Source: Eledone cirrhosa
Taxonomy: Eukaryota
DNA length: 64,000 nucleotides
NCBI GenBank assembly: GCA_964016885.1
Contig: OZ024740.1
Coordinates: 183,954,001-184,018,000, forward strand
Direction of reading: 5' to 3'
Below, piece by piece: positions 1 to 64,000 of the stretch. Position 1 is the first letter of the stretch. Each line of letters opens with the position of its first letter. The translations under genes were made by a program, and so were the position numbers. Under the pieces are notes generated by a model. The model saw nothing but the letters and a program-made list of their open reading frames with translations, was not told the origin of the DNA and ran no database searches.

Positions 1-690
1 ACCGAAGGACAATGTAGAGACAAAAACATATTGTAGCATAGGTGAGACAGCACGTAGTGTAGGGGAACGGATAAATGAACACTGGCGAGACCTTCAAGAT
101 AGTAAAGAATCATCTGTACTCTACCAACATGCTAAAATAGAACACAAGGGTAAATTAGAGAACATAGAAATAAAAATAGAATCTACACACAGAAAAGACG
201 CAATGTTTAGACAAATTACAGAGGCAATAAACATAAAAGATTTACAACCAAAATTAAATAGAAAACATGAGTGGAACAGCAACATCACAACTTACAATTA
301 AGGACAACATGAAAACACACACACACATAGAACAAACAACCAACCAGTAACATGTAAATAAACAAATAAATAAATGAACATAAACACACACAGACACCCG
401 GATGTGGCGCATGCGCAGACTGAGCACACAACACAAACACAGAAACAAAATGGCGTAGGACAGAACAAAGGAGAGGCACAGAAACAAAGAAAGGAATCCC
501 CAGTCACTGAAGAGGTCACAGAGTGTGTGACGAAAGAACTATGACAAAATATAAACAAATATCTGGTTGTGGAACCAACCAACCAGAAATTTATAAATTT
601 ATTATAAATTTATTATAATAAATTGAAGTGAAAGCTACTGGTGCGTGTGTTTCTTATTGGCAACATGACCCTCCCAAAGTATAACAATAT
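1..690 (+). mobile_element. Penelope-like element 3' end: GIY-YIG C-terminus plus pseudo-LTR, ending in (TA)n
   Basis: Frame 38-301 reads IGETARSVGERINEH...RQITEAINIKDLQPKLNRKHEW*, typical of a PLE GIY-YIG tail. Followed by an HHR motif and a (TA)n tract. Homologous inverted copy at ~60990-61470. Confidence 0.85.
503..545 (+). ncRNA. Minimal type I hammerhead ribozyme in PLE pLTR
   Basis: GTCA-CTGAAGA-G-GTCACA(gagtg)TGTGAC-GAAA-GAAC-TA-TGAC: stem I GTCA/TGAC, 6-bp stem II, intact core. Confidence 0.8.
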
Positions 691-5281: not shown

Positions 5282-7335
5282 ATGTCGTTGGTGCTCTGGT
5301 AGGAGAGGCGCGGACATGCGCCATTCCAAACAGATCCATCCACTACAACCTCCACCTCATGCGATACATCGTGAAGAGGGTAGCTAGGGAAACTGGCATG
5401 GGTGGGTCGTTGATTAATTTAGATCATTCGAAATCTTTCGATAGGGTCGACCATCATTATCTGGCGGCAGTCTTAAGGGCGGCTGGCTTTGGGCACGTCT
5501 TCAGAGGCTGCATCGCTGCCATGCACAGCGTCATCTGCTCTGTGGTGAGAGTGAACGGCCACCTTTCGGAACCATTCAACATCATGCGGTCGGTCCGCCA
5601 AGGATGTCCCCTCTCGTCCCTCTTGTACGTATTGACTCTCCAGCCATTACTGCTCAAACTGGAGACGTTGAGGGGGGTCTCGCGCGAATTAGGATGGGGA
5701 ACATCAGTCTCAGCATATGCGGATGGTGAAACCGTATTGGTGTCGAACACCAAACACATCGAGGCGATCGACACCACACTAAAAGAATACGAAGCGGTGA
5801 CAGGAGCAATGATCAACCAGGAAAAGTCGGTGGGCCTGCAGCTCGGCACATGGAGAGGCAAGTCCAAGCCGTCCAACAGCGTTGTCGGGCGCTGGACGGA
5901 CGGACCGGTTAAATTGCTATGGTTTCTGGTTCGGTCCGGACCTCCAGACGGACAAAATCTGGGACGAGGTGACAAGCAGGGTGGCTTCTCTCACCCAGAA
6001 ATGGGAGGAGAGGAAGCTATCCCAGAAAGGTCGAGCTGAGGTGGCTAACGCGTACATCGCGTCCGTCATCTACTACTCCCTGACCGTCGTGCCTTGTCCT
6101 AGGCCTAGCCTGACTGCGCTGGAGCGTTTGCTCTTTCGCCTTTTGGGGAAGGGACGCGCTCCGATAGTCAGGCGGTCCATCTGAAGTCAACACCCGCTAC
6201 GTGGAGGGCTGGGTAGCCCATGGCTGATGATGCGCGGACACGCGCTCAGGCTACGATTTCATTTCCACCTCAACCTCGACGGTGATCAGGTGTGGTCGCC
6301 GTTTGCTAGACGCGTCTTTCCCCAGTTCGTCTCCTTGACGGAGCTGCAGTCCTGGGTCAAGCGAAGATCGAGAGGGAGCGCTTGGAGACTGGAATGTCTT
6401 CAGGCGCTCACAACCCTCGACCAATCGGGCAATGTGATCGGAGGAAATTCCACCTTGGCGTTCTATAGAGGATTAGTGGAGGGGAAGAGCGAACACGTAC
6501 TTGGGGAACCTCTAGGCGTCGGCGAAATTCAGTGTAGCCAATCTCTTTGGGAGAATATTCGGGACTGGGCCTATGGACAACTTTCAGAAATCCCTGGTCT
6601 GGCAGTGCTACTGAGGAGCTTTGCCAGTTAGGGATAAACTTTAGAGGCATGGAGGTGCCGTCAGCTGGGCATGTCCGAGATGCGCGCAGGGCGACGAAAC
6701 CGTCCTGCAGGCACTCATCCAGTGTCCGAGCATTGTTGACTTGTGGGTTTATGTCGAACACCTGCTGTCGCGTATAGGACGGATCCAGCTATCAGCTGAG
6801 TCCATCGAGAGGATTGCCCCGCCCTCTTCCTTTAGGAAGGCAATTTTTATCTGTCTGGTGGCCATGGCGAAAGAGATAGTATGGTGGACACGTTTGAAAG
6901 GGCTGAAGACGAGCACTTACCACTTCGGTGATGCCCTGATTAACTTTTTCCAATTTCATTTAAAAAGGAAAATCAGGTTAGAGAGGGAAGTGCTCTCTTC
7001 CCAGCTTTTTGTTGAAAGATGGGTGAGAGATGCAAGAATGGCCCGAGTGAATGGGCCTACTCCCAGTATGTGCCTGTAAATTAAAGGAGGAAGACTGGGA
7101 GAGGGCACTCGCCCTGGTGGTCAGGGTCACCTTTGCTTTTTTTAATGGGCTTTCTCCACGAATGGCCCCCGAAAGTCTCCCCTATATTGGGGAATTTTTC
7201 ATTGTTTCTATTTTTGTCACATCCTCTGTTTTTTTTTCACACGCAGTAATCACCATTTGTACCGTGCTGTATTGTCCTGTACTGTCATTAATGTCTACTT
7301 TGTGTAAACCCTTGTAGTTAATAAAGAAAGCATTA
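5282..7335 (+). mobile_element. 5'-truncated L1/Tx1-type LINE (copy A): RT, C-terminal region and 3' UTR
   Basis: RT motifs DHSKSFDRVDH, VRQGCPLS, AYAD. Frameshifted. 3' end CCCTTGTAGTTAATAAAGAAAGCATT; 5' side abuts (ATT)n. Confidence 0.92.
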
Positions 7336-21059: not shown

Positions 21060-21612
21060 TGCTTTCTTTATTAACCACAAGGGTTTACATAAAGTAGACA
21101 TTAAGGACAGTACAGGATAATATAGGACGGTACAAATGGGCATTTCTGCGTGTAAAAAAAACAAAAAAAATAGAGGATGTAATAAAAGAACAATGAAATT
21201 TCCCCAATGGGGGGGGGGGAGAATTCCGAAGGCCATCGTGGAGAAAGCCCATTAAAAAAGCAAAGGTGACCCTGACCACCAGGGCAATTGTCCTCTCCCA
21301 GTTTTCCACCTTCAATTTACAGGCACATATTCAGAGTAGGTCCACGCACTCGGGCCATTCTTGCCTCTCTCACCAATCTTTCATCAAAAAGCTGGGAAGA
21401 GAGCACCTCCCTCTCTACCCTGATTTTCCTTATCAAATGAAATTGGAAAAAGTTAAGCTGGGCATCACCGAAGAGTTAAGTGCTCGTCTTCAGTCATTTT
21501 AGACGCGTCCACCATACTATCTCTTTCGCCATGGCAACCAGACAGATAAAAACTGCCTGCCCTGCCCGGGTAAAGGAAGAGGGCGGGGCAATCCTCACGA
21601 TGGACTCAGCAG
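21060..21612 (-). mobile_element. Tx1-type LINE 3' end (copy D, same family as A and F)
   Basis: Reverse complement closely matches 6795-7335; flanked by (TAA)n. Confidence 0.88.
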
Positions 21613-25303: not shown

Positions 25304-27158
25304 TTACTTACCTTCCGGGCTCTTGTGAAGGTCGGGTTGTTCGACCTCCATAGTTGGTGGGGTTTCTTTTGGGAACCCCTTTAAAAGTCTTGAAATGGGT
25401 TTTACTTTCGAGGTTCCCACGTCCCGAGGAAAGCTGTCTCGTATTTCTTTGAAAATATCGAGCGACATTCGCACCACAGCCAAATCTTCCGGCACGCGAA
25501 ATGTGCTCGATTTAAACATTTTATTTGTTTGCGTGGCTGTGGTGGTGATGGTTTTGGTGGTGTTGTTTCGGTTGTATCTGTGTTTGTTGTGAGTGCGGTG
25601 TCTGTGGTTTCAGACGTTTGTGTGTATATTTGTTCTTGCGTCTGTTCAGGTTGTTTGCGTTTGGGGAATTCTGGTGATGGTGATGATGATGTTGATGTTG
25701 GTGTTATTGGAGATATGTTTGCGTGAGTGGTGTCTGCGTTTTTTATTGTTGGTGATTTTGTGCTTTGTTGAGTTTTTTTTTTCATTTTTGTGCTTCCTTT
25801 CTTGTATTATTTTGGGGGATTTTGATTTTCCCAGATGAGTGATCTGTGTCTGTAAGTGTGTCTGTATGTATATTTGTGGTTTTATTGGTGTGTGTATTTT
25901 GGAGCGGGAGGGGGAATTTGACAGCTTTCCTCGTTTCCCCCCTGGGTGGTCAATATTGGTGGTGGTCTTACTATTGGTGTTTTTGTTGGTGGTTTTGCCG
26001 GTGCTGGTGTTGGTTGTGGTCCTCGCCCCGGCGTCGGCAGCAGTGGAGCCTCTTTCAACAATTGAGGGAAGAAGGCTCGCAAATGAGTTTTTTCCCCACA
26101 AACAAAAGACTGCGGCCTTTTTCCTTCGGCCATAATGTGAATGACCGTCCCATTCTGAAGCGGATGTGGTCCGGGAATGTCTTCACATTCTCGGGCCTGA
26201 TCTGGAGAAGAATCTCCAGGACAACCCCAGACCAGTCCTCTCTGGCCGTTCTGGTCACTACTATAGAGACGGTGTCCGTCACCTCCACAATCACACATCC
26301 CAGACGCCACCACATGTCAAGTCCTGGTGAGATTCTGGGAATGCGGAGACGGGCCGTTCTTTTTCCCATGTGGAACGGGTACATTATGACCTTGCAGGTT
26401 TTGCAAGGAGTCATAGCGTGTTTCATAGCGAGGGCTTCAGACTTGAACAACACCGAAATGGTGCCGTGCTGTCTGCCCTTCTCTATGTATTCGGTGTCTT
26501 GTCTGATGCACCTCAGCGCGACTTCGACATCTTCTTGTGGGATTAAAGCTGCCCTTTTGGTTTGTGCTGAGATGCATCTATAATGCACCGTTCTGCGCTT
26601 CACTGCCTCAATAGCTTCTACCGGGACTGTTAAGTTGGCCCAAGTTTGCTCTTGCTTGATGAGCTTCCATGCCTGGGTCAACTTTTCATCTTTGTTTGAG
26701 AGGTCCATGTTGAAGAATGGCCTCTTTTTTGCTGCTGCCGCAGCGAAAGTGTTCTTCTTGTTTTCGTTGGGGGTGTTGTGGTCGTTGTCGTTGTTCTTGT
26801 TTGTGTTGTTGTTAGCACTGTCGCTGTTATCATTGTTGTCTTTGTTGCCACCTTTGTTCTTGGTGCAGTTGGTATTGTTGCTATTGGTGTTGTCGCTATT
26901 TGTTTTCCTGTTAGTGGTGTTGATATTGTTGTTGTATTTGTTATTTTTTTTTTTGTTATCTGTATTTTTGTTGTCACTGTTACTGTCATGTTTTTCAAAA
27001 TTAGAGTTCTCATTGGTATCATTGGTGTCCTTGTTTCTATTGTTTGTGGTGTTATTTGTTTTATCAAGTTGTGTTAATTTCGCTGTAGCGCTCCTCTCAA
27101 CTTCTACGTCGTTGTCGCACGACAACAGACATATCGCTGGGAGGCGTGGCTCAGCCAT
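25304..27158 (-). pseudogene. Copy E ORF1 (Asn/Thr-rich, degenerate zinc knuckle)
   Basis: ORFs 26055-27227, 25646-26101, 25402-25785 and 25304-25519. FVCGEKTHLRAF parallels CVFCGEGTHLRAFC in copy F. Confidence 0.8.
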
Positions 27159-27365
27159 GTTTTTTTTTTCTTCGTAAATTTTTTTACATGTAAAAAAAAG
27201 TTCAAATATGTGGGCCAAAAGGCCCAAATATTATACTTTCCCCTTCACGGGGCCAAATCTAAGGGTTTATATCCTTTACACAACAAGAAATATTTAACAA
27301 CAAATAATTTTAACAGGCCTATAAAGCGACTTACTGTGATCGAGCAAAATACGTTCGCTTAGACC

Positions 27366-27412
<47 letters not shown>

Positions 27413-28253: not shown

Positions 28254-29537
28254 TGAAGGATACATATATTTAGGTGTTCTGGAGGCAGATGATATCAAGA
28301 ACAAAATAATGAAGGAATTGATAAGATCTGAGTACATTAGGAGAGTAAGGAGCGTATTAAATCACATCTAAATAGTAGGAATGTCATAAGTACAGAGAAT
28401 TCCCGAGCTGTGTCTATTATTAGGTACAGTGCGGGAATTCTGAAATGGAATGTTGCTGTACAAAAAGAAATGGATAGGAAGACTAGGAAGCTATTGACAA
28501 CATGTTCCACATTATCCACAACATGTTCCACAAGATGAGTGATGTCGATACACTCAACTTAAAGAGATCTGAAGGTGGAAGAGGTCTTATCAGCAAAGAG
28601 GACTGTGTTCAGATGAAGAACAACACCCTGCACAAATAGGTGACTGACAGTAGGGAGCCAATGCTCAAAATCGTACTGAAGGAGAAGACAATAGACCAGG
28701 GTATGTCCAAGGAGGAAATAACAACAAGGAGGAAGAGCAACGTTCATGAAAAATCCCTTCATAGTACCTTCTTTAAGAAAACTGAATTTAGAGATCCACA
28801 GACTTGGAACTCGTTAAAAAGAGGACACCTTAAAAAGGCTACAGAAGGAATGCTAACTGCCGCGCAAGTGCAGGCTCTCAGAACGAAGTGGGTGAAACAC
28901 CATATTTACAAGGAGGAGGGTAGCCCACTGTGTAGGATATGTGGAGAGAGAGAGGAGACTGTGGTTCACATTGTATCCGAGTGGAAACACCTAGCCCAGA
29001 CTAACTATAAAGGCTGGAGACATGATGTGATGGGCAGGGTGATCCACTGGCACCTATGCAGAAGTGGTATGAGCATAAGCCAGAGTCGGTGATAGAAAAC
29101 AATCAGTTGAAGGTGCAATGGGATTTTAGGATAAATACGGACAAACAATTAGGACACAATAGACCTGACCTGGTGGTTTTTGATAAGGAAAACATATCGT
29201 GCCTGATTGTGGATGTGGCCTGTCCATTCGACACGAGAGTGCAAGAAAAGTAGAGGGAGAAAATTAACCGATACCAGGACTTAAAGGATGTAGAACTGTC
29301 ATGAAGTGAAGTACGTCCTGATTGTCATAGGCGCATTAGGTACTATCTCAAAAGGTTTCCAAGGATGGTTACAGAACTTAGTCCAGCCCCGCTTTTTGGA
29401 ACACTTCAAAAGGCATGCTTGCTGGGAACAACAGAAACCCTCTAATACGACCTGAATATCTGAGGCTGCAGGTAGCGGCTTGATATTCATTTCAACAAAC
29501 ATTCCAGTTAAATAACATCAATGATTGAGACTCAAAG
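28254..29537 (+). mobile_element. Dong/R4 family Q 3' fragment
   Basis: CRICGEREETVVHIVSE, NRPDLVV..IVDVACPFD. Homologous to 37210-38517. Confidence 0.92.
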
Positions 29538-29575
29538 AATAATAATAATAATAATAATAATAATATTAATAATAA

Positions 29576-32500
29576 TGCTTTCTTTATTAACCACAAGGGT
29601 CTACATAAAGTAGACATTAAGGAGAGTACAGGACAATACAGGGCGGTACAAATGGGCATTTCTGCGTGTAAAAAACTAGAAACAGAGGATGTAATAATAG
29701 AACAATGAAAACATTCCCCAATAGGGGGGAGACTTCCGAGGGACATTCGTGGAGAAAGCCCATTAAAAAGTCACTGTGACCCTGACCACCAGGGCAAGTG
29801 CTCTCTTCCAGTTTTCCACCTTTAATTTACAGACACATACTCAGAGTAGGCCCATTCACTCGGGCCGTTCTTCCTCTCTCACCCATCTTTCAACAAAATT
29901 CTGGGAAGATAGCACTTCCCTTTCTAACCTGATTTTCCTTTTCAAATGAAATTTGAAAAAGTTAATCAGGGCATCACCGAAGAGGTAAGTGCTCGTCTTC
30001 AACCCTTTCAAACGTGTTCACCATACTATCTCTTTCGCCATGGCCACCAGACAGATAAAAACTGCCTGCCCTTCCCGGCTAAAGGAAGAGGGCGGGGCAA
30101 TCCTCAAGATGGACTCAGCTGATAGCCGGATCCGTCCTAGACGCGACAGCAGGTGTTCGACATAAACCCACAAGTCAGCAATGCTCGGACACTGGACGAG
30201 TGCGTGCAGGACGGTTTCGTCGCCCTCTGCGCATCTCGGACATGCCCGGCTGACGGCACTTCCATGCCTGTAGAGTTTATCCCTCGTAACACTGCAAGGC
30301 CAAGGATTTCTGGAAGTTGTCCATAGGCCCCGGCACGAAAGTTCTTCCGAAGAGATTGGCTAGTTCATTTTCGTCGACGCCTAGAGTTTCCCCAAGTACG
30401 TCGTCGCTCTTCCCCTCCACTAATCCTCTATAGAACGCCAAGGTGGAGTTTCCACCCATCATATTGCCCGATTGGTCGAGGGCTGTGAGCGCCTGAAGGC
30501 ATTTCAGTCTCCAACGGCTCTCTCTCGGTCTTCGCTTGACCCAGGACTGCAGCTCCGTCAAGCAGACGAGCTGGGGAAATACGCGTCTAGTATACGTAGA
30601 CCACACCTGATCTCCGTCGAGGAAGAGGTGGAGATGTCGTAGCCTGAGCGCGTGTCTGCGCATCATCAGCCACGGCATTCCCAGCCCTCCACTAAGCGGG
30701 TGTTGACAGCAGATGGACCGCCTGACCATCGGAACGCGTCCTTTCCACAAAAAGCGAAAGAGCAAACTCTCCAGCGCAGTCAGACGTGGCTTAGGACAAG
30801 GTACGACGGTCAGGCGGTAGTAGATGACGGACGCGATATACGCGTTAGCCACCTACGCTCGACCTTTCAGGTATAGCTTCCTCTCGGCCCATTTCTGGGT
30901 GAGAGAAGCCACCCTGCTCGTCACCTCGTCCCAGTTTTTGTCCGTCTGGAGATCCGGACCGAACCAGACTCCGACCAGTTTAACTGGTCCGTCCGTCCAG
31001 CGCCCGACGACGTTGTTGGACGGCATGGACCTGCCTCTCCAGGTGCTGAGCTGCAGGCCCACTGACTTTTCCTGGTTGATCATTGCTCCTGTCACCGCTT
31101 CGTATTTCCTTAGTGTAGTGCTGATCGCCTCGATGTGTTTGGCGTTCGACACCACTACGGTAACATCGTCCGCATATGCTGACACGGATCTTCCGCATCC
31201 TAGTTCGTGTGGTACCCCCTTCAACGTCTCCAGTGTGTGCAGTAATGGCTCGAGAGTCAATACGTACAAGAGGGACGAGAGGGGACATCCTTGGCGGACC
31301 GAGCACATGATGTTGAATGGTTCCCTCTCACCACAGAGCAGATGTCGCTTTGCATGGCAGCGATCCAGCCTCTGAAGACGGATCCAAAGCCAGCCGCCCT
31401 CAGGACTGCCGCTAGGTAACGATGGTCGACCCTATCGAAAGCTTTCGACTGATCTAAATTGATCAAGGACCCACCCGTGCCAGGTTCCCTAGCTACCATC
31501 TCTACGATGTATCGCATGAGGTGGAGGTTGTAGTGGATGGATCTATCTGGAATGGCGCATGTGACGTCTAGCACCACCAACATACCTTCTGGGTCCAGGA
31601 AGATGGCCCGTATGGCGAGATCCAAACCTCTCCGAAAAAGCACAGCAACAACTCCCCCTCCCCGATCCCGGACGGCTGGGAGATGCGTATACATCGTAGC
31701 CGCCGATGATCGGTTCGAAGTCCCGTACTTCGGAGATTCTGGTCTCGCTGATGGCCACTACATTTATGTTTAGTGACCTGAGGTCGTTGAGCAGGTGGCC
31801 CTGCTTGCATGGCGACCCCAAGCCACGCGCATTTATGCTGCCTATTCTGAGAGAGGTCATGTTGAAATGGAGTGGAAAAGATGCGAAAGACCACTTACCT
31901 TACTTCTCGTAGAGGAAGGAAGGTTTGTCCATCCTTTTCACTGCTTGTGGCCTCCTCCGGAAGGATGTCCTTATAAATCCTCCTGGAGATTGTTTGTCGG
32001 AAGTTTCCGATGTCTTCGGTGAATGTTTGTTTTAGTGTCGTGTACGTTTTCTGTGTGATGCCAGTGATTTGTATGTGTGGAGGTGGTGTGAACTTTTGGG
32101 TTGTTGTGTAGTCTTTTTCTGTGATGCTGGTGTTGTGTTGCATGTAGTGTAATAATTGGTTGTTGTGTAAATTTAATGCTGTGTATTGTGTATAGTGTTG
32201 GCTGTTTTGTTTTGTTTGCGTTTGTTGTGGGTTTGTTTCTGTTACGCTTTTTGGTGACTTTTGTGGTGTTGTTGTTGGTGGTATTGGGGTTAATGATGGT
32301 GATGGTGTTGGTGTTTGTGGTGATGGGGTTGGGGATGCTGGTGTGTATGGTAGCATATCTGTCCTAACTTTTTTGTTTGTTAATTTATTTGTTTCCCTCT
32401 GTATTTTGTTTTTGGAGGGGGAAGGAAGACACTTTTTTCTTTTTTGGTTTCTTTATTTTTTTCCTGATACCGTTTCCCACTCCTCGTCGTCACAATCTGT

Positions 32501-34072
32501 CTCCAGTTGCGATAAACCGGGGAGTGGAAATTGCTCCACAGGCGTTGGTTTTGGTTGTGGCGTGGTGGATGGTGTAGGCGCTGCTGCTAGTTCTGGCGCG
32601 TTGGGTAGTGGTGGTGTTGGTTTTGCTACTGTTGCTGGGGTTGTTGCTGTTACAGTTGCTTCTGTTGTTGCTGCTACAGTTGTTGCTGCCATATATGCTG
32701 CTGGTGGTGTTGATGGTTGAGTCACTGGGGTGGGTAAGAGAGGTGGCCTTAACCTTTTAGCCTGAGGGCAGAAAGCCCTTAGGTGGGTTCCTTCACCACA
32801 AAAGACACACCTAGGTCTACTGCCCTCGACGATTACGGTGAGGTGGCTGCCGTCAATGAGGTCTATTACCTCTGGGATCTCCTCAATTATTTTATGGTCC
32901 GCTTGGATCAGGAGCTCCATCCCAGATCCGGAGCAGTTCTCCTGCTTTTCTTTTGCTATTTATATTATTTTGGTGTTGGCCTCGATGCCGGCGAGGACGG
33001 CTGCCATTAGCCAGGGAATTTCGATTGCCGGTGGAACGTAGGTCACCCTGATCTTCACAAGTCTCTGGCCACAATAGCTTGGGACGAGTGTGAAGTCGTC
33101 ACTTCTTAATGGGGTCATGGAGTGTTCTCTGGCCTCCTGTGGTGTTTCAAAGAACACGTCCACGGTTCCATACTTCTGCCCACGTCCGATGTGGATTTTT
33201 TTTGCCCACAAATGTCCCAAAGCTTTTGGGATTTGAGATTCGGATGCCCGTTCCACTCGGCGCGATTTTATGTTAATTGTCCGATAAGACACGATGCATA
33301 GGCGACGTTGCTCCATTTTATTAGGTTTGGCGGGGGTGGGTGGGGGGTGAGGCTAACCCTGTACACATCTTTCTTTACCATTCCTTTGGCTTCTTCTAAT
33401 TCCTCCTGAGTTACCTGGATCGCTTCGCACGTTTCTGCTACTCTGGCAAACCTGAGGGTAGTTTTCTTAATTTCATTGTTGCTCTTGTTGTTATCGTTAT
33501 TTTTGCTATTGTTAATTTTAATTTTAGTTATGGTGGTGGTGGCGTCAGTGGTGTTCGGTGTGGAAGAGTTCATTTTGGTTGAATTCATTTCGATATCACG
33601 AGTTAATTTCTTTTTTCTTTTGTTTCTGTTGACGCTGTGGTGGTGGTGGGTATGGGGGTTGTCGCGGTGGTGGTGGTGGTGGTGGCGGCTTTAACACCTG
33701 CAGTCATTGGTAATGGCGGGAAATGAACGTCTGCCTGAGACAAATTTAAAATATTGGTAATGCTTACATTTCCAGTGTTGGCAAACGTAGCAATATTTAC
33801 AATGGTGGTGTCGGTGTGAGGTGTTAAAGTGTGAGGAAGGAGTGACTCTGAGACATCCATGATTTTTCAAAGAAAATTTTTATTTGATAATTATAAAAAG
33901 TTTAAATTTTGGGCTCAAGGCCCCAATATTTTTGAGTGTCCTTTTCAGAAATCAATGTATGTGCACTTATATACAGTTAACAATAAAACATTTCCATAAA
34001 TGGCAATTTTAAACAACTGAAAATAACAAACCTTTGCGGAGCACACGATGATACGATTTATACGTAGGTCGC
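29576..34072 (-). mobile_element. Tx1-type LINE copy F: both ends present, large internal ORF2 deletion
   Basis: ORF1 from 33860 to 31895 with CCHC knuckle CVFCGEGTHLRAFC. ORF2 starts MTSLRIGSINARGL at 31860. APE joins RT directly at ~31562 (LVVLDV|TCAIPD). (TAA)n both sides. Confidence 0.92.
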
Positions 34073-34073
34073 C

Positions 34074-34125
<52 letters not shown>
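34073..34125. repeat. (TAA)n between head-to-head Tx1 and Dong elements
   Basis: Direct inspection. Confidence 0.97.
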
Positions 34126-34129
<4 letters not shown>

Positions 34130-37100
34130 TAAGGGAAGAAAACGCACATGGTGGATATATATCGTTATGGAATCGCTCCCGTAAGTTTTTGATTTTTACT
34201 TCTTTAAAACAACTGTGATAGAATAATTCTTATTACAAATGAACAATAAGATTACAGTTTTCACGTTCAGCAAGCCATAACGCATCACTTTACGGCATAG
34301 GGCCCCAATATTTAATATTTAATTTTGGATCAGAAATGTTATAGTCGAATAGGAGGAAAATGGCAAAATGGCTAAATAGCTAAATAGCTAAATGGCTAAG
34401 TGGACAGACAGACAAATAATTTAACCACCAACACCACCACCACTACCACGCTAAAAACTCTAGTCAAGTTACCTCAACTTCTATTTCTACTTCAACTTCA
34501 ACACCATCACTACAGTACTACGATCATATCACCACCACCACTGCCTCATTATCGCTACCCTCGCTATTCTCTCCCACTACCTCCTGCTAAGTACTACTAG
34601 CACAGCACCACCACCACCACCACCACTGCCTCATTATCACTACCGCCGTTATTCTCTCCCACTACTTCCTGCTAAGACATTCATCTCAGTGTCCCCCACT
34701 AAAAGAGGAAGGCATCAAAATATATATATAGACTGATTTGATGACCTGGTCAAACAATAAAAAAACCAAAAATCAAAATCAAAGCAGCACAGCAACAATG
34801 AAAAACGTAAAAAAAGGAAAATGAAAAGAAAAACAAACAGACAGACAAAGAAGGGAAGGGAAAAACTAAGTCAGACATTCAAACATTACATTACAATGAA
34901 ACTTATGCTTATTCTTTTTTTTTTTTGCCTATTTGTTTGTTTGTTTATTTATGTTCGTCTACAGCGTTATAGTGCCACACAAAAATCACCGGGAGTGATG
35001 AAATCACCGGTGGTTATGTAACCATACATTCACCAATCCTCGATAACAGTGTTTAAATGTCGAACCTAAACAGTTCGAATAAGGGTGTAGTGGAGACTAG
35101 AATGTCATGTGACAGACTCTCACCCAGCAGGTGCTCCCTGGCTAAGCAGCAGGGACCTGGCTGTCAACCAAATACTGCTGGTGTCGGAGGAAGAAGAAGA
35201 AGGAAAGAGACCAGAACCAACTGGACGAAAGAATTGAATAGAACTGTTATGCAATGTTACCTGAAGAGTAACCCCAAGGAGAAAGGCTATAGGAAACGGA
35301 TGCATAACATCTGGAACGAGATTGGTCTATTTAAATTAGATGAACAAAAATTGGCCGGGCAGGCTCGGGTAATAAGAAATAATGGGTGGATAAGCGAGCT
35401 AGAACTGGAGGAAATGAGCAGAGAGATTAGGTTGGAAATGGAGAGTGGAGTATGCCAGGCAAACGAGCCAGTGAGAAATGAAGGTGAAGAGGTTGAGAGA
35501 ACGGAGGAACCATCTCAAGCAGACAATGATCTGAATGCTGAAATAAATAATACCTTGAACAAAGATACGGCCATTGAGGAGATGAATGCTGACAGGCTAG
35601 GACAATATTTGGTTGATATCCTAAACTTAGTGGTAGATAAATTCAACAATGATAGTGGGAAACGTATCAACCTAAGATTTGTAGACAGGAAAAAGTTAAA
35701 AGAAACAACTTGAGGCGAGGAGCCTTCACCAGTGCAACAATATCCTCAACAGCAAATGCGGTGAGGAAATTACTTGGTATAAAAGCGAGAGGAAACAACA
35801 AACAAGAAAGATCAGAGTCTTTGTGGAAGAAACGACTGAATGGTCAAATCAGGGAAATGAGAGATGACATTGGAAAGCTTGAGTCCCTACTGAATCGGAG
35901 ACTAAAAAACATAGACATTAAAAATAGACTGAACATAAAGTACAAATCTAAGAGGAAAAAGCTAAATATTATTATAGAGGAACTGAAGGAACGCATTGTA
36001 GCAAAGAATGCAAAAATTAGGCGATACGAGAGCAGAGTCAGTCAGTATAGACAGAACCGCATGTTTGACAACAACCAGAAGATACTGTTTGGACAGCTTG
36101 AAGAGAAAGAAAGAGGCACGACTTGATCCTTGAGGCGGAACAAACGGAAAAATCCTGGAGAGGAATATGGGAGCAGGATGTTAAACATAATGACCAGGTA
36201 GTGTGGATTGAGACAGTAAAAAAGGAGATTAGTGAACAGGCACACCAACAAACTGATTTGAGTATGACAGATTAAACTCTTAAGGGGCAAACTAAAAAAC
36301 TAACCAACTGGAAATCACCAGGCCCAGATGGTGTGCAGGGGTATTGGATTAAAAATATAACATCCCTCCACCCGAAACTGACAACCATGTTCAATGACTG
36401 CTTGATGTCAGGTGAGGTACCAGAGTGTTTGACAAAAAGTACCGCAGTTCTGGTAATGAAAGACCGAACCAAGGGTAATGATGTTACCAACTATAGACCT
36501 ATCACATGTCTGTCCGTAATGTGGAAACTGTTAACCAGCATTATGTCTGAGGAAATCTACCATCACCTCCACATGAACAACTTGTTACCGGACGAACAGA
36601 AAAGATGCCGAAAGAAGTCCCGTGGTACAAAGGACCAGTTACTTATTGATAAGATGGTAATGAGGAAGTGCAGGAGGAGACACACTGGTCTTGCCATGGG
36701 ATGGATAGACTGCAAAAAGGCATTTGACATGGTGCCTCATTCTTGGATCACCAAAAGCCTAGAGATCTTCAAGGTGGCAGATAACATCAGACAGTTGTTG
36801 GGCAAAAGTATGAAGTCCTGGAAAACAGAGTTAACATCAGCTGGAGAATCCTTCGGAGGCGTGAAGATCAAGAGAGGTATCTTCCAGGGTGATAGTCTGT
36901 CTCCTCTGTTGTTTGTCCTTGCCCTGATGCCCCTGACCATTATACTGCGAAAAGTGAGAGCAGGATACAAGTTGGGAAAGGGACAGCTTACCATCAATCA
37001 CCTCATCTTCATGGACGATCTTAAGCTCTTCGGGAAGAGTGAGGAGTTGGATGTGCTTGTTGACACTGTCCGTATTTTCAGCAATGATATATGTATGCAA

Positions 37101-47292: not shown

Positions 47293-48434
47293 ATTGCACA
47301 AAACTTTCCTGTATTACAGCCCCACGTTATACCCTAACGGATAGTACGATCTATACGTGGATATTTTACGTCCTGATGTGGGAGCTAAGTATATGTTTTG
47401 TTTATTCCTTTACTTATTTGCATAGGTAAATATATATTACCTGTATGTTTTGTGAAGGTTGTATACCTTCTCGTACGTATATTTGATTGTTATGGCGTAT
47501 ATTTTTTATATATTCTGGTATTTAGGGTTTGGCTATGTGTATACGGGAGTTTTGCGTCTGCGTGAGTATGCAGGTTCGTACGTATGGTGGGTGTGTGTAT
47601 ATGTGTACTTCTTGTTTTAGTTGACTTACGTCTCCGAACATTCGTGTATTTATATGTAGGTATGTGTGTGCGCTTGTTATATACGTATTTATTTACTTAT
47701 ATACGTTTATATAATTATTTATTTATTTGTACACAAGCATACACACACACACACATATTTATATGTGCGTGGTTGTATACCTATGGTACGGTTTTGCGTA
47801 TGCTTGTGTATGTACGTATTTGTTTGCGTGTATGTATTTATTTATTTCTATTACTTCTGTATTGTATTTATTTACTTTGTTCTTAACTCTGTAGCGGAGA
47901 TTCATTTGGTCTCCTAGTTAGAATTTTAGTCTACGACTTCTGCTATACCATTCACGTGGTTTTGTCTTTGCGTGCTATTGTTCTCCACGCTCCACATATG
48001 ACTTATTAACTTCGTTTTTTCGTTCATTGCCAGAGAACGTCTCTATGCACCACCTAAGAGAACATTAGTCTACCACCTCTTTTATACCTAAACGTGGTTT
48101 TGTCTTTGCGCGTAATTCTTTTTCACCGCTCCTTTTAATAACGTATTATTCGTTTTTTCCCGTTCTTTGCCAGCGAACGTTTCCACGAACCAAAGTATCC
48201 TCTTCCTGTCTTCCTCCGGTTGCAACGTTTTTTGAAATATCCAGTTCTGCGTTTACAGATTGACTTTGTTAGTTTCAGAAGATCCCGTTAAGGGTGAAAG
48301 CAGCGATTCTTTGCTTAAACTTTAATCTGTTATTTTAATAACTATTTGCTCTACGGTTCTTATATATTTGATATATATTTATCCTTATCGAGCCCTCTTT
48401 GGATTTTAGTCTTCAATTTTATTATTATTACTAT
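47293..48434 (+). repeat. 5' pseudo-LTR
   Basis: Near-identical to 50554-51698; contains an internal ~140-bp tandem duplication and an HHR. Confidence 0.93.
48271..48321 (+). ncRNA. Type I hammerhead ribozyme variant (CAGAAGA core)
   Basis: AGTTT-CAGAAGA-tCCC(gttaa)GGGt-GAAA-GCA(gcgattctt)TGC-TT-AAACT. Confidence 0.7.
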
Positions 48435-48475
48435 TTGGCTCCCCCGGTTGAGCACTCTACTGACTTATATTCATC

Positions 48476-50455
48476 ATGGAGAAACAACATCTGAATATTT
48501 CTACAAAGAACATACCCGTACCAAGCAGGAAAACATACCTAAAACTCCTGATACAGAAAACAGACGCGTTCATTAAAAGGTTGCGTTGGTGTGCCTTTTT
48601 TTTCGATAATCCGCGAAAAGCAGACAACAAACAGGATAAATTTAGATTTAAAACCTATAATAACCCCCCGTGGAACCCAGTATTGCTACCCTTCGAAAAT
48701 GATGCCTTGGAACTCATTCGGAGTATCAAATTTCGGAATAGGAGCAATTCCTTCCAGCAAGACCTGAAGAATATAATTCGTTCTATTAAGGATTCTAACG
48801 CCGTGCACGTCCATTCCGACAAAACTGGCAACCTATATCAAGTGGAGCGCAGTAATTACCATCAACTACTACATAATGCTGTAACTAAGGATTACCGTAA
48901 AACTAATCGGTGCGTCATCAATAAAATCATCGATGTTGGGTTTAAAATCACATCTGATCTCAACATCCTGGACTGGACCGAACCTCTGGACCCTATTTCT
49001 CCCCACTTTACACTGAAGGATCACAAATCCAATTTTCCGAACAACCCTTCTATTCGGCTTATTAACCCTACAAAGTCCGATTTAGGTAGACTTAGTAAAA
49101 CGATTCTTGATAGAATTATACCTGAAATTAGAAGTTTGGCCCCTCTCGCACTGTGGAACAATTCTTTCGCGGTGATTGATTGGTTCAACGGCATACGTAA
49201 CAAGGAACATTGCCGTTTTATCCAATTCGACATCAACAATCACTACTCCTCCATCAATTTACCACTTCTCCTTAGAGTTATCAATTTCGCTAAAACACTC
49301 ACAGCGGTTAAGGATTTCGAAGTTGATGTCATCCTTAATGCCCGAAAGTCGGTGATTAATTTCGACGACTCTATTTGGATAAAAAAATACAATAGTACCC
49401 CATTCGACGTGAGTATGGGCGCTAGTGACTCTGCGGAGGTTACTGATCTTATTGGCCTTTTCCTTCTTTTCTCTATCAAGGAGGATTTCCCAAACGCGGG
49501 CGGTGGTTTGTACCGTGACGATGATCTTTTGACCATGACTAAGTGCGGACCTCGTGCTTGCGACAGGTTCAGAAAAGAACTCACAGCCTTCTTTAAAGGC
49601 TTCAACCTCTGTATACAGGTTGAGGCCAATCTCTCGGTCGTTAATTACCTCGACGTTACCCTCAATTTATTGAATGGGTTGTATTACCCATATAGAAAGC
49701 AGAATGATACTCTTAATTACATAAGTAAGCATTCCAACCATCCCGCCAGCATAACCAAGAACCTGGTAAGAAACGTTTCGTTGAGGCTTTCCCGTCTTTC
49801 CACCAACGAGCGCATTTTCAACGACCATTCCACTTATTACAATGAAGCTCTTGCTCGAAGTGGATTTGTCGATAAGGTAGCATATACAGAGTACGAAAAT
49901 AGACCTAGAAGTAATAGATCCCGTCGCATTTGTTGGTTTAACCCACCATATAATATGGAGGTGGCCACACCATTAGCTAAGATCTTTATTTCCCTTATTA
50001 CGAAGCAGTTTCCCCCTACACATAAATATAGTAAAATTTTTAATAGAAATACTATTAAAATTTCTTACTCTACAACTCCTAACCTGGCACATAACATCAC
50101 AGCTTCAAATTTAGCTAAACTACCTAGCCGTAGGAACACGTGCAACCCTGTAGTTACTACTAACTGTAATTGTAGGAATCGGGCTGATTGCCCCCTATCC
50201 GGGAAATGCCTATCTAGTAACATTGTCTACAAATGTAAGGTTGTAACACCCACGTCCCGTAGGGCCTACATAGAGCTAACCGCCAATAGTTTCAAGCAGC
50301 GTCTTTACATGCATACCCATTCTTTTCGTTACCCTCTAAGAAGGAATATGACGTCACTTTCAGCTTATATCTGGAGTCTAAAAGACAACCACACCCAATA
50401 TAAGATACACCGGGAGATCCTACCTAGGGCTAGATCGTATAACGGAAATAAATGA
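48476..50455 (+). CDS. PLE polyprotein: reverse transcriptase plus C-terminal GIY-YIG endonuclease (probably premature stop)
   Basis: 659-aa ORF with DKTGN, LKDHK, RLINP, FDI, MGASDS, LYRDD, YLDVTL, CNCRNRADC and NIVY..YIE. Frame continues past the TGA as PCDLCAAE..CKH. Confidence 0.9.
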   Translation: MEKQHLNISTKNIPVPSRKTYLKLLIQKTDAFIKRLRWCAFFFDNPRKADNKQDKFRFKTYNNPPWNPVLLPFENDALELIRSIKFRNRSNSFQQDLKNIIRSIKDSNAVHVHSDKTGNLYQVERSNYHQLLHNAVTKDYRKTNRCVINKIIDVGFKITSDLNILDWTEPLDPISPHFTLKDHKSNFPNNPSIRLINPTKSDLGRLSKTILDRIIPEIRSLAPLALWNNSFAVIDWFNGIRNKEHCRFIQFDINNHYSSINLPLLLRVINFAKTLTAVKDFEVDVILNARKSVINFDDSIWIKKYNSTPFDVSMGASDSAEVTDLIGLFLLFSIKEDFPNAGGGLYRDDDLLTMTKCGPRACDRFRKELTAFFKGFNLCIQVEANLSVVNYLDVTLNLLNGLYYPYRKQNDTLNYISKHSNHPASITKNLVRNVSLRLSRLSTNERIFNDHSTYYNEALARSGFVDKVAYTEYENRPRSNRSRRICWFNPPYNMEVATPLAKIFISLITKQFPPTHKYSKIFNRNTIKISYSTTPNLAHNITASNLAKLPSRRNTCNPVVTTNCNCRNRADCPLSGKCLSSNIVYKCKVVTPTSRRAYIELTANSFKQRLYMHTHSFRYPLRRNMTSLSAYIWSLKDNHTQYKIHREILPRARSYNGNK

Positions 50456-50553: not shown

Positions 50554-51692
50554 ATTGCACAAAACTTTACTGTATTACAGCCCCACATTATACCCTAACG
50601 AACAGTACGAACTATACGCGGATATTTTACGTCCTGATGTGGGAGCTAAGTATATGTTTTGTTTATTCCTTTACTTATTTGCATAGGTAAATATATATTA
50701 CCTGTATGTTTTGTGAAGGTTGTATACCTTCTCGTACGTATATTTGATTGTTATGGCGTATATTTTTTTTATATATTCTGGTATTTAGGGTTTGGCTATG
50801 TGTATACGGGAGTTTTGCGTCTGCGTGAGTATGCAGGTTCGTACGTATGATGGGGTGTGTGTATATGTGTACTTCTTGTTTTAGTTGACTTACGTCTCCG
50901 AACATTCGTGTATTTATATGTAGGTATGTGTGTGCGCTTGTTATATACGTATTTATTTACTTATATACGTTTATATAATTATTTATTTATTTGTACACAA
51001 GCATACACACACACACACATATTTATATGTGCGTGGTTGTATACCTATGGTACGGTTTTGCGTATGCTTGTGTATGTACGTATTTGTTTGCGTGTATGTA
51101 TTTATTTATTTCTATTACTTCTGTATTGTATTTATTTACTTTGTTCTTAACTCTGTTGCGGAGATTCATTTGGTCTCCTAGTTAGAATTTTAGTCTACGA
51201 CTTCTGCTATACCATTTACGTGGTTTTGTCTTTGCGTGCTATTGTTCTCCACGCTCCACATATGACTTATTATCTTCGTTTTTTCGTTCATTGCCAGAGA
51301 AAGTCTCTATGCACCACCTAAGAGAACATTAGTCTACGACCTCTTTTATACCTAAACGTGGTTCTGTCTTTGCGCGTAATTCTTTTTCACCGCTCCTTTT
51401 AATGACCTATTATTCGTTTTTTCCCGTTCTTTGCCAGCGAACGTTTCCACGAACCAAAGTATCGTCTTCCTGTCTTCCTCCGGTTGCAACGTTTTTTGAA
51501 ATATCCAGTTCTGCGTTTACAGATTGACTTTGTTAGTTTCAGAAGATCCCGTTAAGGGTGAAAGCAGCGATTCTTTGCTTAAACTTTAATCTGTTATGTT
51601 AATAAATATTTGCTCTACGGTTCTTATATATTTGATATATATTTATGCTTATCGAGCCCTCTTTGCATTCTAGTCTTCAATTTTATTATTAT

Positions 51693-51698
<6 letters not shown>
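50554..51698 (+). repeat. 3' pseudo-LTR
   Basis: Direct repeat of 47293-48434. Confidence 0.93.
51535..51585 (+). ncRNA. Hammerhead variant, second pLTR copy
   Basis: Same sequence as 48271-48321. Confidence 0.7.
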
Positions 51699-62350: not shown

Positions 62351-62419
62351 CACATAAAGCCTTAGGAGCAGGCATATAAAGTGTATATATATATAAAGTG
62401 TATATATATATAGAGAGAG

Positions 62420-64000
62420 GTGAGTGATTTCTTTTCCTCTTCTGATAACTTTTCAGCACCAACATGGCTAATATAAGAATTGGATCTGTGAATGTACGCG
62501 GCCTGGGGATGCCCTGGAAACAGGGCAAACTCTTAAACGACCTCAGGTCGCACAGCATGGATGTAGTTGCCATTTGCAAGTCCAGGATCCACAGCGAGCG
62601 ACAACGGGACCACATCTTCGACGACTTTGAGATCTAACCATCTCTCTGTCAGCCGGGAGGTGGAGGTGGGGTTGCCGTTTTGCTGCGGAAACACCTGGAC
62701 CTCGTAACACAGACGGTACATCTGGACTCGGAGGGTCGACTGGTAGTCCTAGACGTTGACGGTAATGAAGGTGGAGCATTCAGGCTGGTGGCCGCATATG
62801 CCCCATCCGGGACACCGCGGCCAGACTTCTTCAAACGTCTAGAGACTTTTCTGTGAATGTCCCGCTCCCTGCTGTTAGTGGGGGACTGGAATGGAATCCT
62901 AGATGCACGTTAGGACTATGCCGATAGAGGAGGGTGTAACAGCCTCAAACAGTTAATCGGCCGATTTGACCTGGCCGATAGATATCGACTAGATTTTCCA
63001 ACTGTGTCACTGTGGACGTGGACTAATCTCACGGAACATCTAGATCGTAACTAGATAGGGTTCTAGTTAGAAAGAAGGATAGGGACCTGTTTAGCTGTCC
63101 ACAAATGTTCATGGTTGCCTATTCAGATAACAAATTAGTGACCTGCTTAGTCAACCTTGACAAAACCCATAGACAGGGACCCAGCTACTGGAAGCTGAAC
63201 TTGTCGTTACTGACATGCAAAGCCTTCAGTAGACGGATTAGCACTTTAGTTAAGCACCACTTGACGGGGGCTATTGACAACAACATATGGTGGTACTCTC
63301 TCAAGAGGGCAGTTAGATTAGACTCGATAGGTTTTAGTAAAGAATTAGTGTGTTAGATAGAAATAAGACCGAAAAGGAACTGGTAGATAAAGTAGAAGAG
63401 GCACTTGGGAGTGGCAACATAGCCAGAGTGCTAGCGACGAGAACGGCCTTGGATCAGTTCTTCGACGCAAAGCATGAAGGTTACGTTGTCAGAAGAAGAA
63501 TACGTGCTCTGGGAAACGAGGGAGCCAAAGTTGTTAGCTGGGCCCGAGTGACGGAGGCGAAAAGTGGCAACAAGTCCACGATTCGGTCTTTGAAGGACCA
63601 AGACGGACGCGTGACACGTGATCCGAAGCAAATGTGCGCGGCCTTTCAGCGGCACTTTGCTCAACTGTTCGGTCAGGGCGGCGCGCCGGGAGGGGATATG
63701 GATTTCGATTCATACCTCGACGGCCTACCGCGACTCTCGGACAGCGAGGCGAAGTTCTGCGAAAGGTCGATTTCGGCCGCTGAGATAGGCGACGCGCTGA
63801 GCCAATGCGGCAAACGCAAATCTCCAGGTATCGACGGTCTACCCTACGAAGTTTACGTAGCAATCCCGGACTTGTTCTCCCGTCTCCTGGAAGCGGTCTG
63901 CTGCAACTGGCAGCAGAACGGGAGTATTCCCAGTTCTGTGACCAAGGGCGTAATTAGGTTAGTCAGGATGGACGATAAGAAGGGGGATGACATAGGCAAC
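62420..64000 (+). mobile_element. Tx1-type LINE copy G: inter-ORF spacer plus ORF2 (APE into RT), runs off the window
   Basis: ATG at 62464 gives MANIRIGSVNVRGLG; GGGVAVL, VGDWN, YSD, SYWKLN and KSPGIDGLPYE follow; stops and frameshifts present. Confidence 0.9.

Follow-up and report, generated by a model that had tools for sequence, protein, structure and literature searches.

A conserved 5' splice donor at the end of ORF1 in a LINE lineage of Eledone cirrhosa, and ORF2 as a possible giant intron

LINEs need ORF1 protein far in excess of ORF2 protein, and human L1 makes both proteins from one two-gene mRNA. Here, we have analyzed a window of 64,000 nucleotides from Eledone cirrhosa (contig OZ024740.1, positions 183,954,001 to 184,018,000), in which ORF1 of a LINE copy (copy F) closes within a 5' splice donor. 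The question raised by this locus is whether the whole of ORF2 could be an intron. A first-pass annotation had proposed that the donor at 31898, which was indeed found there, is joined to an acceptor in the 3' UTR, giving an ORF1-only mRNA with a new C-terminus. Our analysis suggests that the LINE lineage likely uses the donor in this way, as a regulated giant intron spanning ORF2, and we put the probability of this reading at roughly 0.5. The features concerned are listed in Table 1.

Table 1 Positions of the relevant features in the window (a slash marks a splice boundary)
Feature	Position	Strand	Remarks
LINE copy F (L1/Tx1 group)	29535..34073	minus	Dead copy, within (ATT)n run; 5' end 34073, (ATT)n tail near 29535
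Copy F ORF1	31895..33860	minus	Broken by frameshifts and one stop; C-terminal end ...LPLREVR-stop
5' splice donor AAG/GTAAGT, overlapping ORF1 stop	31893..31901	minus	First intron base 31898, phase 2; ORF1 stop TAA 31897-31895
Pyrimidine-rich spacer, clamp 5' strand (predicted)	31861..31892	minus	
Copy F ORF2 (endonuclease, reverse transcriptase, zinc finger)	29827..31860	minus	Stop TAA 29829-29827
Clamp 3' strand (predicted)	29783..29834	minus	CACTTGCC at 29800-29793 complementary to donor
Motif CCCCCCTATTGGGG, hairpin-like, common to families	29713..29732	minus	Inside the proposed intron, so splicing would remove it
Acceptor ACACGCAG and T-rich tract, A/D/F family only	29662..29685	minus	
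Putative terminal exon, 19 codons	29570..29661	minus	Stop 29603-29601, AATAAA 29588-29583
Acceptor in copy D	21139..21153	minus	Last intron base 21146
Acceptor in copy A	7239..7250	plus	Last intron base 7246
Donor AAG/GTAAGT, family B copy	25306..25314	minus	Phase 1
Donor GAG/GTGAGT, family G copy	62417..62425	plus	

The intron span given by the first-pass annotation is right in its coordinates, but it was read from a dead copy: 1,354 nt of ORF2 are deleted at about 31562, and the proposed intron measures 2,237 nt in copy F versus 3,622 nt in an intact copy. In the intact copy L069, ORF2 is 1,139 amino acids long, matches Pfam PF03372, PF00078 and PF13966, and contains an AP endonuclease, a reverse transcriptase and a C-terminal zinc finger, as in the L1/Tx1 group. 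Its best solved relative is human L1 ORF2p (E 1e-47; R2, E 1e-17), and a separate upstream ORF1, a poly(A) signal, a simple-repeat tail and the absence of LTRs also agree with this group. No Pfam match was found for ORF1 of copy F. A microsatellite target preference is indicated by (ATT)n preceding 11 of 12 F-type 5' ends, and the assignment to the Tx1 clade is drawn from domains and microsatellite targeting rather than from a reverse transcriptase tree with named Tx1 elements. The family is large: in the 3.0-Gb genome, the 21-mer spanning the unspliced acceptor occurs 7,827 times without mismatch.

Several further observations were made on these elements and on the window. Insertion takes place at (ATT)n runs, which are often the tail of another copy, and same-strand tandem arrays of different families result (27366-27410 and 34073-34130 in the window; loci L061-L080). 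Three copies (L201, L211 and L295) have a 5' half (ORF1 and spacer) and a 3' end from different families; L201 and L202 were also considered as two trans-mobilised deletion copies, an idea that was dropped as they appear to be one duplicated segment. In both copies of family Q (L259 and L261), ORF2 starts with ATA and has no ATG, and ORF1 of this family (612-613 open codons) stays open past the donor and reaches into the ORF2 start, overlapping it in the -1 frame. On the minus strand at 27340, a GTAAGT about 30 nt within the 5' end of a family B copy is a possible 5' UTR donor. Finally, an open frame of 663 codons without a Pfam match lies on the plus strand (48464-50455) between direct repeats of 1,145 nt that are 98% identical (47293-48434 and 50554-51698).

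The conservation of the donor was analyzed in 11 families (F, E1, E2, B, H, G, I, I2, N, J and Q), each represented by one copy, with 5' and 3' ends paired within single copies; R (the same family as Q) and P (with a 3' UTR like that of J) were left out of the counts. AG/GTRAGT closes ORF1 in all 11 families, in codon phases 0, 1 and 2, and lies 28-46 nt upstream of the ORF2 start. The donor 8-mer is invariant in 11 of 11, with an A/G change at +3, which the splice consensus allows, as its sole change, whereas adjoining columns agree in only 5-9 of the 11 families; four-fold sites of ORF2 show 49-70% identity to F. Judged from these alignments, the conservation of the donor exceeds chance, and the site appears to be kept for its own sake. 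Donor-plus-ORF2-start matches number 4,478 in the genome.

Use of the donor was observed in one contig. Record 1 of run X4 (469 nt, depth 3.1) aligned to positions 2740-2826 of L069 with seven differences, position 2826 being the last exon base, and was unlike the element for at least 255 nt past that place. This continuation has a single occurrence in the genome, directly after TTTAATTTTGACTATAG in an exon of a kinesin-3-like gene, where TTTTGACTATAG precedes it; the next kinesin exon, with the P-loop, is 4.4 kb further on. On the same strand lies a full-length F-family copy whose donor is 9,535 nt upstream of the junction. Like the contig, it differs from L069 at seven places, and its donor is the sole one among the 80 F-type donors examined that carries all five listed variants; the contig starts 30 nt ahead of the first private variant, as expected from a 31-mer graph. 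From this single contig, the library type of which is inferred, we conclude that the donor functions in splicing. X4 is taken to be RNA from the GT-AG junction and from the small assembly (88 million letters versus 1,428 million for X1). The spliced molecule skipped both the 3' UTR acceptor and the AATAAA of its own copy, which are intact, without a branch, and the bypassed acceptor ranks first (tied) of the 99 sites in the skipped interval. At this locus (G000:C2:91059129-91070878; L242, L244 and L245), the LINE copy lies in sense inside the kinesin-3-like gene, its ORF1 frame (56 open codons) is joined in frame to the kinesin motor exon, and the AG of the junction lies about 110 nt inside the likely natural exon start.

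A second line of evidence for donor use comes from a hybrid subfamily with five loci (L085, L106, L109, L255 and L293), in which an E-type ORF1 is cut exactly at the donor and followed by F-type sequence after a CAG. The joining CAG is 42 nt upstream of the donor of F, and one added base preserves the frame; the same join was also found in record 5 of X4 and record 14 of X6. The join may have arisen by splicing or by a template switch at the shared AG, as its CAG has no pyrimidine tract.

We then examined the proposed acceptor. As the first-pass annotation had reported, a T-rich tract and an acceptor are present in the 3' UTR of copies A, D and F, and the distance to AATAAA, given as 70-80 nt, is 73 nt in F. 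The site of F reads TTTTTTACACGCAG/A, with 29662 as the last intron base, and ranks 2 of 40 YAG sites downstream of the donor by a crude pyrimidine count. The YAG is retained in at least 89 of 94 F-type 3' ends, a level of retention to be expected of any site while copies are young. An acceptor at this place was found in 1 of 11 families only: the sister family E1 has ACACGCAC, with CAC instead of CAG, one base change away, family B has TAA where F has CAG, and no YAG occurs downstream of the ORF2 stop in families I, N and Q. The ORF2 stop is TAA in F alone and YTAG in the other 10 of 11 families. As acceptors, sites at the ORF2 end rank 1 of 29 in Q, 3 of 33 in G and ninth in B and H, and in N a CAG 7 nt ahead of the ORF2-stop TAG ranks 2 of 29. 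The loss of the ORF2-stop TAG and the gain of the 3' UTR acceptor on one branch would fit an acceptor that moved, although this is a single event. Conservation of TAG/G at the ORF2 stop could alternatively reflect pairing with CCAAC-ATG rather than splicing, and testing whether the phases lead to a quick stop gave no significant result (8 of 10, P 0.055).

Joining donor and acceptor removes the ORF1 stop and yields the frame EVR-NAHLYRPVLSC(T/L)(L/V)LNVYFM-stop, as had been read by the first-pass annotation; the frame is open in D and A, and the changes between D and F are those listed there. The open frame was rejected as evidence, since among 20,000 shuffles 49% had no stop in the first 19 codons and 17% had a stop at codons 15-23, and the matching stretch of E1 is open in the same frame despite CAC for CAG. 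Exon variants common to at least 4 of 94 copies comprise three silent changes and one replacement in the proposed frame (P 0.037, uncorrected, with n = 4 and three frames tried), and their comparison with singletons gave a Fisher P of 0.084 (ORF2 control, 15 to 15). The 3:1 ratio of silent to replacement changes among shared variants is a weak hint. The idea of a new C-terminus found little backing, as the coding signal is weak and the exon has no counterpart in other families; the 19 added codons would likely serve just to reach a stop codon in the final exon rather than form a new domain.

A similar layout was identified in a distant relative with 41% ORF2 identity, which occurs as tandem arrays on contigs filed in a bacterial MAG; these contigs are likely host DNA. 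ORF1 of this relative, which has a zf-CCHC domain, ends in TAA G/GTAAGT, placing the donor 1 nt past the stop in 28 of 28 ORF2 starts, and a second donor lies 14 nt past the ORF2 stop. A pyrimidine tract with TAG is present in the 3' UTR of 21 of 21 distinct copies, 175 nt upstream of AATAAA, and ranks 1 of 37 as an acceptor. This is the layout proposed for copy F, with the ORF1 stop left intact, and the acceptor there could serve the second donor only. A second family on the same contigs has a 3' UTR donor and acceptor and no ORF1-end donor. It should be noted that loci L382-L423 hold head-to-tail intact LINEs, in which an intron-like 3' UTR stretch of 237-263 nt is retained in every genomic copy seen. 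No spliced junction was found among 40 overlapping loci of the relative. A first metagenome scan turned up nothing, and 20 more distant loci (19 of 37 metagenome hits and L421) contained one donor-like hexamer, far from the ORF2 start, and the layout in none.

In every family, the spacer between ORF1 and ORF2 is predicted to pair with the end of ORF2 as a clamp, a long-range pairing over the donor that the first-pass annotation had overlooked. The spacer's own partner (-41.5 to -52.7 kcal/mol) was better than every ORF2 window (104-166 each) in 11 of 11 families, and own partners were 9.2 kcal/mol better than foreign ones after centring (0 of 20,000 permutations). The own partner came first in 6 of 11 rows, with close sisters holding most of the remaining first places. 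Matching changes could be observed at the donor: in F, GTAAGT faces ACTTGC, and in G, GTGAGT faces ACTCAC. In a six-family run, one pairing failed (33 of 300 shuffles), that of L211, likely a hybrid copy. In the distant relative, no part of the element pairs better with the donor region than the ORF2 end (5 of 5, each with 0 of 200 shuffles). Of the nine donor bases, the predicted helix covers eight in F and between five and eight across families. In every family, and likewise in the relative, it brings the ORF2 AUG to face the region of the ORF2 stop; the AUG has a CCAAC context in 10 of 11 families. Since pairing of eight donor bases in F should hinder splicing, the helix counts against a giant intron there. 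On the minus strand, ATTAAA (29821-29826) lies immediately 3' of the ORF2 stop of F, in one of the loops of the predicted clamp. We also considered a weakened clamp as the cause of splicing at the kinesin copy and found it unpersuasive (-39.6 versus -45.2 kcal/mol, second weakest of 17, with the donor still covered).

The proposal that ORF2 is a giant intron thus stands in part: the donor works, the acceptor of F is among the best two of the element and the layout recurs in the relative, but the predicted junction was not seen, the acceptor was skipped at the kinesin locus and it is specific to one family. If the reading is right, splicing of some transcripts would join the donor to an acceptor located at the ORF2 end or beyond it (CAG at 29662 in A/D/F) and give a short ORF1-only mRNA, and the helix between spacer and ORF2 end would keep the remaining transcripts unspliced. 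The 3' strand of the clamp would be transcribed about 125 nt ahead of the acceptor. With U1 already on the donor, spacer pairing would draw donor and acceptor together; with no U1 there, the helix would close over the donor and hold the RNA in its full-length form for translation and copying back. A race between U1 and the clamp would then set ORF1-only mRNA against full-length RNA, presumably for an excess of ORF1 protein like that of copia Gag. On read-through of the poly(A) site, acceptors of the host or of a neighbouring copy would come within reach of the donor. The fuller version of this reading we hold more tentatively, at somewhat short of an even chance: in a lineage conserved to 41% ORF2 identity, the whole reverse transcriptase gene would be a regulated intron, a clamp in the 3.4-kb range that co-evolves with the donor would set the ratio of ORF1-only to full-length RNA, the acceptor would shift between the ORF2 stop and the 3' UTR by family, and read-through splicing would yield hybrid families and LINE-host fusion RNAs.

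The alternative that survives best, although we consider it rather unlikely, is that the donor is a docking site for U1, serving protection of nascent RNA, elongation or export, and is later masked by the clamp; splicing would be a leak, and the CAG of F would have arisen by chance, the 3' UTR being rich in T. In favour of this reading, the two observed uses of the donor both lead to places other than the 3' UTR of the element itself, the acceptor is missing in 10 of 11 families and is one base change from E1, and the helix lies over 5-8 of 9 donor bases. In Arabidopsis, moreover, U1 at the donor of the EVD element is described as blocking premature termination (PMC5580714). However, ORF2 contains no AATAAA or ATTAAA in 5 of 11 families, including F, so U1 would have little to protect, and the relative retains a strong acceptor in 21 of 21 3' UTRs. 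Nonsense-mediated decay follows a 50-nt rule, and the two donors of the relative, 1 and 14 nt past stop codons, lie as expected if real splicing must escape this decay.

It is improbable, in our view, that the clamp serves translation or packaging, bringing ORF2 start and stop together for reinitiation or for cis-binding of ORF2 protein, with the donor-like sequence kept mainly as part of the helix. That the AUG of ORF2 faces its stop region throughout the families, and in the relative as well, speaks for such a clamp. Nevertheless, the donor is invariant where its partner is not (B, H, N, J and Q leave positions +2 to +4 without a pairing partner), the only change at +3 is the A/G change of the splice consensus, and the X4 contig shows the site used in splicing.

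Genomic copies that lack exactly the proposed intron, which the first-pass annotation had suggested looking for, were not found. The exact 21-mer of the spliced junction had 0 matches in the genome versus 7,827 for the unspliced one, which by the rule of three limits spliced copies to less than 0.04% of unspliced ones. None of 48 matches with the donor followed by a base other than G was spliced, all being point changes, small deletions or unrelated sequence, nor were any of three such matches in family B. Among 54 deletion rows, the sole repeats were one locus fetched twice, and none began at the donor. If ORF2 acts strictly in cis, an RNA lacking ORF2 leaves no copies, and spliced genomic copies would not be expected; that deletions are not common to several loci fits such cis action, so their absence weighs little. 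It is further discounted because splicing would also remove the hairpin common to the families. When contigs of X4, X5, X6 and X1 were compared with a full copy, the donor-to-3' UTR joint was absent among the best 15 of 1,111 joints. A 186-nt donor stretch was found in 19 contigs (13 of X4, 2 of X6 and 4 of X5), with 7 of 8 loose ends visible and no joint to the 3' UTR or to a mini-intron acceptor; this blank carries no weight, as consensus-like copies would give junction contigs with about 30 nt on either side of the joint, which may escape alignment. The summed depth of the 3' UTR in X4 (18-fold, versus 1.04 in X1) was rejected as evidence of splicing because contig depth cannot rank parts.

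These data also bear on a mini-intron of 52-58 nt, whose removal would take out the spacer and fuse ORF1 in frame to ORF2. Such an intron could end at an in-frame AG 52 nt past the donor of F, and the top-ranked YAG lies within the spacer in G, I, I2 and N; but the spliced RNA would retain ORF2 and be copied back, yet 0 of the 48 altered matches are spliced, the AUG keeps its CCAAC context in 10 of 11 families and the phases differ, which makes this very improbable and largely refutes it in F already. Hardly more credible is that the kinesin contig stems from a deletion in the DNA or from chimeric assembly, with the donor unused: its depth is low, the library type of X4 was not recorded and its acceptor lies within an exon, about 110 nt past the likely natural one, but the two sides of the joint fall exactly on GT and AG, on the same strand and in the right order, with agreeing locus-specific variants and just 2 nt of shared sequence at the joint.

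With regard to known systems, the closest is the Ty1/Copia element EVD of Arabidopsis, which makes a spliced short gag RNA and an unspliced full-length RNA (PMC5580714). In EVD, as in the LINE described here, the gene for the structural protein ends in a conserved U1-type donor, and splicing supplies the stop (PMC5580714), as it would in the LINE. EVD, on the other hand, is an LTR element with a short intron, its splicing is coupled to premature termination inside pol and its spliced RNA has been demonstrated (PMC5580714), whereas the LINE is non-LTR, with a proposed intron that comprises the whole of ORF2, its own poly(A) site and a predicted helix over the donor. The earlier comparison with copia gag splicing therefore holds for a conserved and used U1-type donor and fails for the LTRs, the short intron and premature termination; by analogy, the LINE may work like copia-type subgenomic gag splicing without being a member, being non-LTR with a 3,622-nt intron that would end in a normal 3' UTR.

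Spliced human L1 is likewise an L1-group element with working splice sites (PMC5860796, PMC2896524). The L1 SpIREs use 5' UTR donors, lose 5' UTR or ORF1 sequence and are called dead ends, their donor being retained for a RUNX3 site (PMC5860796), and splicing of SpORF2 leads to an ORF2-only RNA (PMC2896524). In contrast, the donor here is at the end of ORF1 and ORF2 is what would be removed; genomic copies lacking exactly the intron, as seen for SpIREs, were not found, and a chimeric subfamily joined at the donor exists. Kibi and Koshi, microsatellite-targeting Tx1 elements, share an L1-like ORF2 and insertion into simple repeats, but differ in the repeat unit, and passages on splicing and introns mention none for them (PMC4494074). 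TART of Drosophila, also non-LTR, has spliced transcripts, with introns in antisense ones (PMC1636488). Full-text searches, matched by title and abstract start and excluding subscription journals, Repbase and supplements, returned no description of a LINE with a donor closing ORF1, an intron across ORF2 or a clamp of this kind.

New in this study are the junction contig, the family test of the F acceptor and the two-donor layout of the relative. As the kinesin case indicates, 4,478 copies with a near-perfect donor are also a large source of mis-splicing into host genes. If true, a splice switch acting together with a long-range RNA clamp would meet the need for excess ORF1 protein in another way, of a kind so far shown for LTR (copia) elements.
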